Virus record (IMG/VR): IMGVR_UViG_2734482772_000010
Direction: 5' to 3' (one strand)
Length of the DNA: 34,584 nucleotides
Source: a virus
Lineage: Duplodnaviria; Heunggongvirae; Uroviricota; Caudoviricetes
Each line of letters opens with the position of its first letter. The first letter of the stretch is position 1. The translations under genes and the position numbers were made by a program. Positions 2,552-21,791 of this stretch are shown in pieces. The notes beneath the pieces are model-generated. The model had not been told where the DNA came from, searched no databases, and worked only from the letters and a program-made list of their open reading frames with translations.

Positions 2552-2574
2552 GATATTAAAGGCGTTTAAGAAGG
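2552..2574 (-). promoter_or_regulatory. conserved late-promoter-like motif, copy upstream of baseplate W/J/I and tail-fibre genes
   Basis: Plus-strand GATATTAAAGGCGTTTAAGAAGG, abutting the gpV-like stop and 33-55 nt upstream of the gpW-like start. Confidence 0.45.
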
Positions 2575-2575
2575 T

Positions 2576-3103
2576 TCAATGGGAATGGTGATTAGAGTTC
2601 TGACCATCAGCAAATATGTTACCCGTTGCATGGGCGCTTCCGTTGATTTCCAGATCACCATTGAGTGTCGCGGGGCCGTTGATCGTGGTAACTCCCGTGA
2701 GGTCGAGGTTTTTCCCTTTGAGAGAGATATCAGCGGCAACCTCCACCACGATACGCTCAATACCTCCTCTGACCGTCAGCGTATGGGTCGCGCGGTTATA
2801 ACTGAACTCCGCGCCATCAGCGTATTTCGTACCCCGGACGTTTTTATCACTGAACGGCGGTTTATCGACGTCTGAGTACACCGCGCCCAGAATAACACCA
2901 TCCTCGCCGTTGGCATCGAGCAGCACCTCAACCTGCTCCCCCACGTCAGGGAGCCAGTAATCCTTGTTATCCTGGGTATTGCGCTGTAGCACGTTAAGCC
3001 AGTTTGTGCGCAGATTATCGCATTCAGGCAGACGAACGCGGGCCTGAACCCTGTCGGCATCAACGGCACTGACCGTACCGATCTGACGGGTGACACCAGT
3101 CAT
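2576..3103 (-). CDS. baseplate spike/assembly protein V-like
   Basis: 175-aa ORF between gpD-like and gpW-like genes; OB-fold-like N-terminus; His-rich C-terminus (NSNHHSH). Confidence 0.65.
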   Translation of the reverse strand: MTGVTRQIGTVSAVDADRVQARVRLPECDNLRTNWLNVLQRNTQDNKDYWLPDVGEQVEVLLDANGEDGVILGAVYSDVDKPPFSDKNVRGTKYADGAEFSYNRATHTLTVRGGIERIVVEVAADISLKGKNLDLTGVTTINGPATLNGDLEINGSAHATGNIFADGQNSNHHSH

Positions 3104-4254
3104 TTTTTCTTCTCCTTAATCACCGTCGATGTACTGCCATCCGGGTGATAAACCGTGAGTTTCTGAGTTTTTTGTTTTTTCCCTCTTGTGACTGGCCCCC
3201 GTGCCACTTCCAGCTCTGTGGTGTAGCCGCTGTTACGCTCAAACGCATGGCGGGCAGTGATTATCAGCCATGGACCGGATAACTGTCCAAAGCCCACCAG
3301 TTCAATTTTGTTGCCTGCTGTCAGTTGAGGCATTCCCGTCAGCGTCAGGGAGCCGTTCTGCTGGTATTCGTTATGTCTGGCCAGTGCTGAATCCGCTTTA
3401 ATCCGGGCACTGTCCGGGTCGCTGACGCGGCTGTTAACTTTAAGTGAGTCAGCGCTGGTAACCTTACCGCCTTTGAGCTTTTTGTCGCTTTCACGGGTAC
3501 CACCATCAGCTTCGTAGACGATCAGTTTTTTACTGCTGCTTTTCTGGTGTTTTACCTTTGCAGATTTATAGACCCGGTTGATGGTGTCACGCAGGGAAAA
3601 GCAGGCCACATCCTGCGGTTTTAACTGCCTGACCGGCTCCTGACTGCGCAGTGTGGCCAGATGAGAAAAAATCAACTGGTCACTGACCACTTTCACTGCA
3701 TAACCATACTCGCTGGCCAGCCGGCGCAGAAAACCCACGTCGGTTTCAGCATACTGGGTCACCCGGTCGATTCTGATGGACTCAATGCTGCCCACCAGTT
3801 TCAGCCGGTGCTTTCTGGCAATCCGCCCCGCAACAGCTGCCAGCGTGGTGTTCTCAAAACCACGGCTGGATTTAGTCCGCAGAGCACTGTTAACCGAGGT
3901 GGCCACCCCACGGATAGCGACAACGGACGCGGGCGAACTCACTTCGATCTCGTCTATTGAGAATGTACCGCAGGACAGCAGTTTCTCGCCCTGATAACCC
4001 ATTTTCAGCGTCAGCGTGTCACCCTTGCCCGGATACCACTTATCCAGCCAGCGGCCATCGGTGTCGTCCAGCTCCACCTCAATGGTATCGGACTCATTTT
4101 TGATGTTATCGCTCCAGACCACACGGGTGACATAAGGCGCGATATCAGAGGTGATGTTTTTCTGCAGATACCACAGAGTGAATACCGGCGTCAGCACATC
4201 GCTGACGCCGGTTAACGCTGATGTGGCTTGCGCAGTACTGTTTATCTCAGCCAT
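3100..4254 (-). CDS. tail protein, P2 gpD-like (late control D / Mu P-like baseplate hub)
   Basis: 384-aa ORF following gpX-like and gpU-like genes, the conserved X-D-V order of P2/Mu-type tails. Confidence 0.65.
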   Translation of the reverse strand: MAEINSTAQATSALTGVSDVLTPVFTLWYLQKNITSDIAPYVTRVVWSDNIKNESDTIEVELDDTDGRWLDKWYPGKGDTLTLKMGYQGEKLLSCGTFSIDEIEVSSPASVVAIRGVATSVNSALRTKSSRGFENTTLAAVAGRIARKHRLKLVGSIESIRIDRVTQYAETDVGFLRRLASEYGYAVKVVSDQLIFSHLATLRSQEPVRQLKPQDVACFSLRDTINRVYKSAKVKHQKSSSKKLIVYEADGGTRESDKKLKGGKVTSADSLKVNSRVSDPDSARIKADSALARHNEYQQNGSLTLTGMPQLTAGNKIELVGFGQLSGPWLIITARHAFERNSGYTTELEVARGPVTRGKKQKTQKLTVYHPDGSTSTVIKEKKK

Positions 4255-4457
4255 GGGGCAATATCCTCTTCTGTACGGGCATCTTCAGCCTCAATAACCG
4301 GGATCAGTAACAACAACCCGGAGGGCAGCACCGGCGTAATGGCCACGTGCGGATTGGCTGCAATAATCCGGGGATAGCCCAGCGGGTCACCGTAGTACTG
4401 CCATGCCAGCGAATCCCAGCGCTCTCCGTCACGGGTAATATGTTCAAGAAACATCAC
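4242..4457 (-). CDS. phage tail protein X-like
   Basis: 71-aa ORF; W..YYGDP......IIAANP pattern resembles P2 gpX; overlaps both neighbours. Confidence 0.6.
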   Translation of the reverse strand: MMFLEHITRDGERWDSLAWQYYGDPLGYPRIIAANPHVAITPVLPSGLLLLIPVIEAEDARTEEDIAPWLR

Positions 4458-20639: not shown

Positions 20640-21365
20640 TTACGTACCCACACAGCTTGCCCCTCCCCATGAGAGATAACGCGGGGCAAGCGTGAACAGG
20701 ATGCGCCGGGGATAATGACGGTTCTCCCGCCAGCTGGCAGCATTGCGTCCGGCATTCACCGTGGCGACATGTCCGAACCAGCGGGTACGGTCCAGCCCTT
20801 TCTGTGATGCAAGTTGCCTGTCCCGCTGTACCCAGCCAAGACCCCCGTTATAGCCCGACAGCGTCATGGCCATACGCTCGCAGTCACTGGCGGCGCTGAT
20901 GCGCTGCCACAGCCAGCGGTCATAACTGACCAGCGCCCGGATAGCCCATGCCGGATTAAACGGCTCTCGACTGCTCAGCGCCGGCATCAACTGGCTTATC
21001 CAGTCGGCAGTGGCAGGCATAAACTGCGCCAGTCCCTGAGCCCCCACCGGCGAGATCGCATCAGGTCGCCAGCCGCTTTCCTGATGCAGTTGCGCAGCGA
21101 AATCAGCCACCGGCGCAGACAGTCCCCATTCAAGGCGGGCATTACGGATCACATCATCGCGATACTGCAGGGCAGCCCGCGGGGGCTGTGCTGCGGATGC
21201 CTGACTGAAAAAGCCGCCACACCAGAGCAGCCAGGCAATCACCAGGTTGCCAGCAAGCTGCCACCAGAAGCTGTATTTATCGTTACGTGGTTCGCCGTGT
21301 CTGATGGCGGTTACGCCCAGAGCAAAGGCGAACAGAATAATGAGGGTGATTTGAGGCCAGTTCAT
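20640..21365 (-). CDS. endolysin, lytic transglycosylase with N-terminal signal-anchor (SAR-type)
   Basis: SLT-domain signature HQESGWRPDAISPVGAQGLAQFMPATA; N-terminus MNWPQITLIILFAFALGVTAI is weakly hydrophobic; start ATG right after holin-like gene stop. Confidence 0.75.
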   Translation of the reverse strand: MNWPQITLIILFAFALGVTAIRHGEPRNDKYSFWWQLAGNLVIAWLLWCGGFFSQASAAQPPRAALQYRDDVIRNARLEWGLSAPVADFAAQLHQESGWRPDAISPVGAQGLAQFMPATADWISQLMPALSSREPFNPAWAIRALVSYDRWLWQRISAASDCERMAMTLSGYNGGLGWVQRDRQLASQKGLDRTRWFGHVATVNAGRNAASWRENRHYPRRILFTLAPRYLSWGGASCVGT

Positions 21366-21367
21366 GG

Positions 21368-21718
21368 TCACAGCCCTGTTGCCACAGCCAGACAGACTGC
21401 TGCAACAATCAGTGCGCGGCGGATTAACGCAGCAGAAAACACCAGGTGCAGGCCGGTCTGCACAGGGAAACGCCCTTCAGCCATCAGCCTGTTGTCATGT
21501 TTCAGGTACTGACCGGGACGGGCTTTGGGGAAGAGCGAACGGTCAAGCCAGTAACCCAGCACTGCTGCCAGCGTGATGAGTGCCAGCTTGTAGATCACAA
21601 CAGGCAACTGCTGTGGCGAGACCAGAGCGATGGTACCCAGCAACAGCACTGAGGTCAGTAGCCATCCGCTGAGGCGAGGTTTTTTAACAGGGGGAATGAA
21701 TTTTTTCAGGTTTTTCAT
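21368..21718 (-). CDS. holin-like membrane protein (first gene of late arm)
   Basis: ORF-track ORF 21368..21751 trimmed to ATG at 21718 preceded by AAGGAGA; three predicted hydrophobic segments. Confidence 0.5.
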   Translation of the reverse strand: MKNLKKFIPPVKKPRLSGWLLTSVLLLGTIALVSPQQLPVVIYKLALITLAAVLGYWLDRSLFPKARPGQYLKHDNRLMAEGRFPVQTGLHLVFSAALIRRALIVAAVCLAVATGL

Positions 21719-21768
21719 GAATGTCTCCTTGTGTGGTGGAGACAGCATCACAAATGATCAGGGAAAGG

Positions 21769-21791
21769 GATTTTAAACAGCGTTAATAGTG
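21769..21791 (-). promoter_or_regulatory. conserved late-promoter-like motif, copy upstream of lysis cassette
   Basis: Plus-strand GATTTTAAACAGCGTTAATAGTG, 51-73 nt upstream of the holin-like start; matches the other three copies. Confidence 0.45.

Follow-up and report, generated by a model that had tools for sequence, protein, structure and literature searches.

The late arm of a BcepMu-type transposable prophage carries a 23-nt motif in each of its four intergenic gaps, and these four motifs are probably the activator-binding sites of four late promoters that would be served by a single protein of the Mor/C family, as judged from their sequence and from the analogy with phage Mu. The prophage is IMG/VR virus record IMGVR_UViG_2734482772_000010 (Caudoviricetes), a stretch of 34,584 nt which is called the window here. 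The assignment is carried by the motif itself, its confinement to the four gaps, the symmetry of its dyad, a hexamer at a fixed distance downstream of it, the conservation of these elements across the family, a geometry like that of Mu and the presence of one Mor/C-family gene. From these features, we infer the binding of the protein, the activation and the start sites of transcription. A first-pass annotation of the window had already proposed activator-dependent late promoters at the motifs; its promoter anatomy, the position of the sites at the heads of operons and the Mor/C candidate are retained here, but its -10 element and its start sites have been reassigned.

A motif in the four gaps of the late arm

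The four copies of the motif, which read CACTATTAACGCTGTTTAAAATC, GTTTTCTAAAGCAGATTAAAATC, TCTTCTTAATCCCCTTTAATATC and CCTTCTTAAACGCCTTTAATATC in gene sense (minus strand), were located exactly where the first-pass annotation had placed them, before the baseplate gene W (site 1, 2552-2574), the tail chaperone gene (site 2, 8366-8388), the protease gene (site 3, 14284-14306) and the holin gene (site 4, 21769-21791). Eleven of the 23 columns are identical in all four copies and 15 in at least three, which lowers the previous count of 15 columns identical in all four. When the window was searched with the consensus TWAA-N6-TTAAWATC at no more than one mismatch, four matches were obtained, all on the minus strand, and these are the four sites. 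The motif does not occur at the frequency of shuffled sequence, from which 0.25 matches were expected, and none of 100 shuffles reached four. A position weight matrix was also derived from the four window sites; such a matrix is circular and was used solely for locating orthologues. Its best match outside the sites (29579-29601, minus strand, CATTCTTAAACCCCTTTGACAAC) is found in the early arm, in antisense orientation where two early genes meet, and it is probably due to chance, having no -10-like hexamer at the correct spacing.

The late arm has essentially four non-coding gaps, as had been stated before, and elsewhere its minus-strand genes overlap or abut. The gaps measure 56 nt (site 1), 91 nt (site 2) and 214 nt (site 3), and the fourth is the region upstream of the holin gene (site 4). 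There is an apparent fifth gap of 174 nt at 7803-7978, which holds two overlapping minus-strand open reading frames (ORFs; 7793-7981 and 7896-8153). Running from the chaperone gene to the start of the tape-measure gene, these ORFs look like a programmed-frameshift extension of the tail chaperone, comparable to gp42/gp43 of BcepMu, and on this analogy they fill the interval, which is therefore no true gap. From the end of the motif to the likely start codon there are 50 nt for holin, 55 nt for protease, 52 nt for chaperone and 32 nt for W, close to the figures reported earlier (51-56 nt for three sites and 33 nt for the other).

Conservation of a dyad and a downstream hexamer

The window is of the BcepMu type in that its gene order and its divergent arms agree with those of Burkholderia phage BcepMu (AY539836). 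Its close relatives are Klebsiella phage KP12 and Escherichia phages Phi06_2974 B and PhiKM, and further relatives in the family come from Klebsiella, Photorhabdus, Pectobacterium, insect symbionts and Burkholderia. A 2.5-kb piece across the protease site matches 638 of 5,426 complete E. coli genomes, including those of ABU 83972 and an O25:H4 strain. For the comparison of sites, approximately 120 related loci were collected via the major capsid protein, and the four orthologous genes were placed in them by tblastn. This gave 174 distinct site sequences (50 for holin, 44 for protease, 54 for chaperone and 26 for W), with Escherichia-like bacteria, Photorhabdus, Xenorhabdus, Pectobacterium, Brenneria, Arsenophonus and Chromobacterium as hosts.

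Over the 174 sites, the conserved columns read t.tTAA......TTAA.A, followed by a variable stretch and then A.aCTG, and the flanks diverge freely. The first block is a dyad-symmetric element of 18 bp, TnTTAA-N6-TTAAnA, in which one turn of the helix separates the half-sites. The second block was also evident in the alignment of the four window regions, where all sites have A..CTG 23-24 nt past the motif. The distance from the end of the right TTAA to the hexamer is 23 nt for GATGCT, CAAACT and CATACT and 24 nt for AATACT. A hexamer of the form nAnnnT followed by G is found in 174 of 174 sites, with the A and the T invariant, and its offset from the TAAWAT position of the motif is 20 nt in 171 sites, with 19 or 21 nt in the remaining three. 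CATACT, GATGCT, GATACT, AATACT, CAGACT and CAAACT are among the hexamers of the orthologues. The invariant A and T of nAnnCT fit the -11 and -7 positions of a -10 element, and each hexamer is followed by G, by mostly pyrimidines and then by a purine at the predicted +1.

When the dyad and the hexamer were combined into one composite pattern, only the four sites were matched within the window, and in the 2.31 Mb of 122 related loci there were 349 matches at the four orthologous positions and 76 elsewhere. This loose pattern gives 0.67 matches per shuffled window with a maximum of 4 (200 shuffles), so that its significance is weak when taken alone; the significance of the motif rests instead on the stricter consensus, the common context of the sites and their conservation.

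A single Mor/C-family protein as the candidate activator

The window encodes one protein of the Mor/C family (PF08765, 139 bits, full length), and tblastn found no paralogue of it in the window, in agreement with the first-pass annotation, which had named this protein as a candidate activator. As the only such protein in the window, it is the natural candidate for the activation of the four promoters. The protein belongs to phrog_532 (late transcriptional activator), and among PDB entries it matches Mu C (9L0X) and Mor (1RR7) best. Over the C-terminal 76 aligned residues, a stretch that contains the helix-turn-helix, it shares 42% identity with Mu C, and its identity to Mor is 29%; the BLASTP E values are 3e-16 for C and 3e-13 for Mor. 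Residues of Mu C that are reported to bind DNA or to be essential (Y75, P77, R98, S110, Y115 and R120) are conserved in it. The recognition-helix positions Q113 and Q116 of Mu C are W and N here. BcepMu gp01 is 51% identical to the window protein, and the two have the recognition-helix pattern S..WIY in common, including the W. The sites of gp01 are likewise of the TTAA type, and the W/N helix would fit a changed half-site specificity. Klebsiella phage KP12 annotates its Mor homologue as 'rdgB'.

We propose that the Mor/C-family protein, made from the early arm, would bind the 18-bp dyad, which overlaps the position of the missing -35 element, and would recruit host sigma-70 RNA polymerase to the weak nAnnCT-G hexamer 23-24 nt past the right half-site. 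Transcription would then start about 7 nt after the hexamer, and on this assumption the dyad is centred at -42.5 at three sites and at -43.5 at W. The lysis operon would start at A 21737; the operon from protease, scaffold and capsid through the tail tube at G 14252; the operon from chaperone and tape measure through V at A 8334; and W, J and the tail fibres at 2519, the A of the W ATG, without a leader. The cascade would lead directly from early to late, without a middle stage of the Mu type, a suggestion that is made because only one activator is visible.

Anatomy of the predicted promoters

The coordinates of the promoters and of the other features discussed below are collected in Table 1. 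A scan for sigma-70 consensus promoters called none of the four sites, and they contain no -35 hexamer, which bears out the earlier remark that a -35 element could not be recognised. The sigma-54 element TGGC-N8-GC (-24/-12) is also absent from the four sites, and a search of the whole window gave no Rfam match at or above the gathering score. Three of the predicted leaders are 19-24 nt long. Those of holin (ATG 21718) and chaperone (ATG 8313) contain Shine-Dalgarno sequences of the AGGAG type, AAGGAG and AGGAG, respectively, and that of protease (ATG 14228) contains a weak GGGA alone. The discriminator is GTCTCC at the lysis promoter and GCCTCC at the W promoter. The baseplate gene W has no Shine-Dalgarno sequence in the window or in any relative, and in its 26 distinct orthologues the ATG lies 6-8 nt past the hexamer, with nearly all pyrimidines after the G. 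Because W has no Shine-Dalgarno sequence and its ATG follows the hexamer so closely, its mRNA is probably leaderless, with transcription predicted to start on the A of the ATG.

Table 1. Coordinates of the features of the window; promoters, -10-like elements and RNA hairpins are predicted.
Feature	Coordinates	Strand	Description
Lysis promoter (Plys-like)	21737..21791	minus	Dyad TATTAA-CGCTGT-TTAAAA at 21771-21788; -10-like GATGCT at 21744-21749; 50 distinct orthologues
Protease/scaffold promoter (position as Mu PI)	14252..14306	minus	Dyad TTCTAA-AGCAGA-TTAAAA at 14286-14303; -10-like CAAACT at 14259-14264
Chaperone/tape-measure promoter	8334..8388	minus	Dyad TCTTAA-TCCCCT-TTAATA at 8368-8385; -10-like CATACT at 8341-8346
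Baseplate W promoter (comparable to Mu PP)	2519..2574	minus	Dyad TCTTAA-ACGCCT-TTAATA at 2554-2571; -10-like AATACT at 2526-2531
Mor/C-family gene	33226..33612	plus	Directly after the gemA homologue, as mor in Mu
W hairpin GGGGGCA-AUAC-UGCCUCC	2520..2537	minus	Encloses the -10-like hexamer and ends directly before the W ATG
Holin inverted repeat UGUCUCC / GGAGACA	21722..21744	minus	Pairs -7 to -1 with the holin Shine-Dalgarno sequence
Protease inverted repeat CUGUC(U)CCG / CGGGACAG	14233..14260	minus	Pairs the -10/discriminator with the leader just before the start codon
Terminator-like hairpin AGGGGCTCCGGCCCCT	8389..8404	minus	GC-rich, then a T-rich run overlapping the left flank of the chaperone dyad
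Late arm	~21750 to 1	minus	Holin, endolysin/spanins, terminase, portal, Mu F- and G-like proteins, protease/scaffold, capsid, P2-like sheath and tube, chaperone, tape measure, baseplate V/W/J
Early arm	from ~24850	plus	Repressor region, transposase, GemA, Mor-family protein

Predicted pairing between promoter and leader

Upstream of each predicted start, a stretch of 22 nt pairs with the leader above the shuffled level (mean z of -1.9 to -3.3, with 31-62 orthologues per site). The W hairpin has a folding energy of -12.7 kcal/mol (z = -2.0), and its stem covaries from G-C to A-U and from C-G to U-G in relatives. At the holin site, where the inverted repeat is conserved, a read-through RNA is predicted to fold at -14 kcal/mol compared with -0.5 kcal/mol for an RNA from the predicted +1 (mean z = -3.3 over 62 orthologues). 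G.U pairs are confined to the sense strand, at this repeat and in the pairings as a whole, which points to RNA. Compensatory changes from C-G to U-A are found in the protease repeat of relatives, and at the chaperone site the bases just upstream of the predicted start are likewise complementary to the leader or to the Shine-Dalgarno sequence. Stems flank the hexamer at three sites of BcepMu (holin, gp32 and gp49), and in Mu a similar repeat spans the annotated start region of PI, with a weaker one at Plys. The W, holin and protease hairpins were also considered as intrinsic terminators, which was rejected, no T-run being found after them.

If transcription starts where we predict, the bases involved would not be transcribed from their own promoter, and the pairing would thus need read-through transcripts. 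There are two ways to read it: read-through transcripts may be translationally masked, or transcription may start further upstream as the first-pass annotation proposed. We favour the former because the motif is dyad-symmetric, TAAWAT loses its last T, the hexamer stands at a fixed distance and the geometry is like that of Mu. Under this explanation, read-through transcripts would hide the ribosome-binding site by pairing it with the 5' arm, and activator-started transcripts, being without the 5' arm, would hence be open or leaderless. On this view, the late promoters would be arranged such that the point at which a transcript starts governs whether the leading gene of its operon is translated, an idea that is offered tentatively and that we regard as possible but doubtful.

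Weighing the alternatives

Several observations weigh against the reading of the motifs as activator sites upstream of the nAnnCT hexamers. First, the start sites are predicted from a weak hexamer, which matches the -10 consensus at just 3-4 of 6 positions, and no role has been established for the C at -8 and the G at -6, which are conserved. Second, TAATAT/TAAAAT within the motif is itself -10-like and is conserved in three of the four site classes. Third, the conserved sense-strand RNA pairing uses bases -8 to -1, which lie upstream of the predicted starts. Fourth, the dyad centre is 1 bp nearer the hexamer than in Mu at three sites. Finally, the orthologues are phylogenetically related, and the 174-site counts thus overstate the independent support.

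Some of these points favour the geometry of the first-pass annotation, in which TAAWAT, contained in the conserved motif end TTAA[AT]ATC, is the -10 element, transcription starts about 7 nt past that motif end (near 21762, 14277, 8359 and 2545) and the activator acts at the upstream TTAA or beyond. The A..CTG block and the hairpins would then be part of a 5' leader of 45-50 nt that regulates translation. In each of the four window copies, TAATAT or TAAAAT agrees with the -10 consensus at 4-5 of 6 positions, and TAAWAT is retained in most of the distinct orthologues of W (25 of 26), chaperone (45 of 54) and holin (47 of 50). Moreover, it is only with these start sites that the conserved sense-strand hairpins, which pair with the ribosome-binding site, are transcribed from the promoter itself. 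We nevertheless consider this geometry unlikely. The last T of TAAWAT, which is critical for a -10 element, is kept in 3 of the 44 distinct protease-site orthologues and lost in the other 41, most of which read TAAAAG (with TTAAAAG as the right half-site), and it is also gone from two of the four BcepMu sites. The columns of the motif form a symmetric dyad, which suits a site bound by a multimer better than a -10 element, and the upstream TTAA would occupy -23 to -20 of the spacer, a position from which activators of the Mor/C type are not known to work. The geometry is unlike that of the mapped promoters of Mu, it leaves the hexamer at a fixed 20 nt with its invariant A and T in 174 sites unexplained, whatever the hairpin context, and it would give W a structured leader without a Shine-Dalgarno sequence. 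When the -10 element is placed instead at the hexamer 20 (+/-1) nt further on, the dyad centre falls at -42.5 or -43.5, as does the C dyad of Mu. TAAWAT is therefore more likely to be the promoter-proximal half-site of the activator dyad, and the start points probably lie about 25 nt downstream of those proposed earlier.

A second alternative is that the dyad binds some other protein in a non-activating role, for example as a late repressor or operator site, a site for a nucleoid protein such as integration host factor (IHF) or HU, or a site of replication, transposition or packaging. A dyad-symmetric, AT-rich site shows merely that a multimeric DNA-binding protein is likely, and the early arm of BcepMu is annotated with an HU-type DNA-binding protein (gp04) and other regulators. 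We give this alternative little credence, however, since the site is found only directly upstream of the first late gene of each operon and in a single orientation relative to these genes, its spacing to the -10-like hexamer is fixed at 20-21 nt, its geometry equals that of the Mu C sites, and the Mor/C protein encoded in the window has a DNA-binding scaffold that is conserved. A chance resemblance among stretches of AT-rich intergenic DNA, for which the shuffled matches of the loose composite pattern could be cited, is effectively refuted, since no shuffle gave four matches to the stricter consensus, the four copies agree in strand and context, and the element is conserved across genera and in BcepMu while the flanks diverge.

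Neighbouring elements and gene starts

The terminator-like hairpin at 8389-8404 is the top-listed site of its kind in the late arm. Its stem varies in relatives yet stays complementary (GGGAGCC..GCTCCC, GGAGGG..CCCTCC and, in BcepMu, GGCCCGC..GCGGGCC), and we interpret it as the terminator-like end of the preceding head/tail-tube operon. In the gap between the G-like gene and the protease gene, a palindrome (CCTTTATAAAGG) is followed by a hairpin (AGGCTTTACAGCCT) and a T-run at 14364-14386 (minus strand). This element was kept in every relative examined and is duplicated in some relatives, and its counterpart in BcepMu is TTTTATAAAGGCTTTACGGG. In its position, it corresponds to the annotated gyrase cut site and terminator of Mu between G and I, but the sequences are not similar. 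Its possible roles are those of a terminator, of a site for protein binding or of a counterpart to the central gyrase site of Mu.

Two gene starts differ from those assigned mechanically. The start of holin is likelier to be ATG 21718, which has the AAGGAG sequence and fits a PHROG alignment that begins at residue 12, than the mechanical ORF start GTG 21751, and that of the chaperone is likelier to be ATG 8313, which is conserved in relatives, than 8319. Upstream of holin, a divergent ORF on the plus strand (21811-22152) has its start codon 22 nt from the holin dyad, an arrangement that is conserved in relatives. Activator binding at the dyad might also affect this ORF, because there is little space for a separate promoter of its own. 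Its start codon sits in CATGAT (21810-21815) at the mirrored promoter spacing. A mirrored plus-strand promoter at this hexamer was considered and set aside as probably a coincidence, its start site falling within the ORF. The region between the arms holds a DUF2441 gene (22173-22754), which like holin is on the minus strand and lies upstream of it, and, on the plus strand, a gene for a D12-class adenine methyltransferase (22983-23747). With the composite pattern, no copy of the late motif was found in the window at either gene; mom of Mu, by contrast, is C-dependent.

Implications

The late-promoter architecture proposed here gives a concrete and testable regulon for a single Mor/C-type activator, consisting of four promoters with predicted starts. 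First, it would extend the recognition code of Mor/C proteins to a second type of half-site, TTAA, with W/N where Mu C has Q/Q. Second, it suggests a two-step cascade from early to late in place of the three steps of Mu. Third, the annotation of prophages would gain better operon boundaries, the true start codons and a baseplate gene marked as probably leaderless, in a family that is common, as the E. coli genome matches indicate. In addition, the promoter-leader pairing, if functional, would be a compact means of silencing the lysis and structural genes against read-through transcription in the lysogen.

Comparison with P2, BcepMu and Mu

The tail and baseplate genes of the window (W, J, V, D, sheath and tube) are P2-like. 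Phage P2 has four activator-dependent late promoters without a -35 element, and promoters of the P2/186 type are activated by the zinc-finger proteins Ogr, Delta and B. P2-type late promoters carry TGT-N12-ACA centred near -55, and this element is absent from -90 to +11 at all four window sites.

BcepMu has the same gene order and the same four gaps as the window, and the composite element is found in its genome at 11485, 18811, 24532 and 30774. Two of its four right half-sites read TTAAAAG. Its hexamers are CAAGAT, GATGAT, GACAAT and CAACAT; they end in AT (nAnnAT, then G), unlike those of the window, which end in CT. The start codon of gp49 and the likely start codon of gp32 lie 6-7 nt after the hexamer, like that of W. 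The annotated start of gp32 (ATG 18850, in the 18849-18863 region) lies within the predicted -10 element GATGAT. Further on, ATG 18861 (MNAKPLHIF...) aligns with the protease N-terminus of relatives and would be the first codon of a leaderless transcript. The GenBank record of BcepMu contains no regulatory annotation.

The late promoters of Mu have a -10 hexamer and no -35 hexamer, and C binds a 16-bp imperfect dyad centred at -43.5, with the bases just downstream of the dyad also needed (PMC2582627). In cryo-electron microscopy, Mor and C are seen to enter two neighbouring major grooves immediately upstream of the -35 position (bioRxiv 10.1101/2025.05.02.651988). In the Mu genome (AF083977, with promoters annotated from PMID 2522923), all four late promoters have 24 nt from the end of the right half-site ATAA to the -10 element, and the -10 hexamers are TAGACT (Plys), CAAACT (PI), TATCCT (PP) and TAAGAT (Pmom). 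The window resembles Mu in having four predicted late promoters, a Mor/C-family activator candidate, and AT-rich half-sites 6 GC-rich bp apart with a centre near -43.5. The sites before the lysis, protease/scaffold and baseplate operons parallel Plys, PI and PP, and CAAACTG of PI recurs unchanged at the window protease site, which has the same place in the genome, between G and the protease gene. There are also terminator-like hairpins ahead of sites 2 and 3, as ahead of Mu PI and of Pm, the Mor-activated middle promoter. Pm is further comparable in that a Mor/C-family activator acts on a dyad overlapping the -35 region and in that it adjoins a terminator hairpin with a T-run (AAGCCGGTTAATCCGGCTTTTTTT), as site 2 adjoins AGGGGCTCCGGCCCCTTCTTCTT. 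However, Pm drives a middle operon that encodes C, and neither such an operon nor a second activator is visible in the window.

The differences from the Mu late promoters concern both the sites and the circuit. The half-sites of the window are TTAA/TTAA within TnTTAA-N6-TTAAnA, whereas those of Mu are TTAT/ATAA; the distance from the half-site to the -10 element is 23 nt at three window sites compared with 24 nt in Mu; and the hexamer of the window family, unlike that of Mu, is nearly always trailed by G and a run of pyrimidines. The window has one Mor/C protein, in contrast to the cascade of Mor and then C with a middle promoter in Mu. It has an extra promoter before the chaperone/tape-measure operon and none before a mom-like gene, its late arm is inverted relative to the early arm, and its promoters are predicted from sequence. 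Neither the searchable literature nor the annotations of BcepMu, KP12 and E. coli were found to describe these sites. While this kind of element is well known from Mu, the new features here are the different half-site, the single activator, the probable leaderless gene and the possible pairing between promoter and leader.

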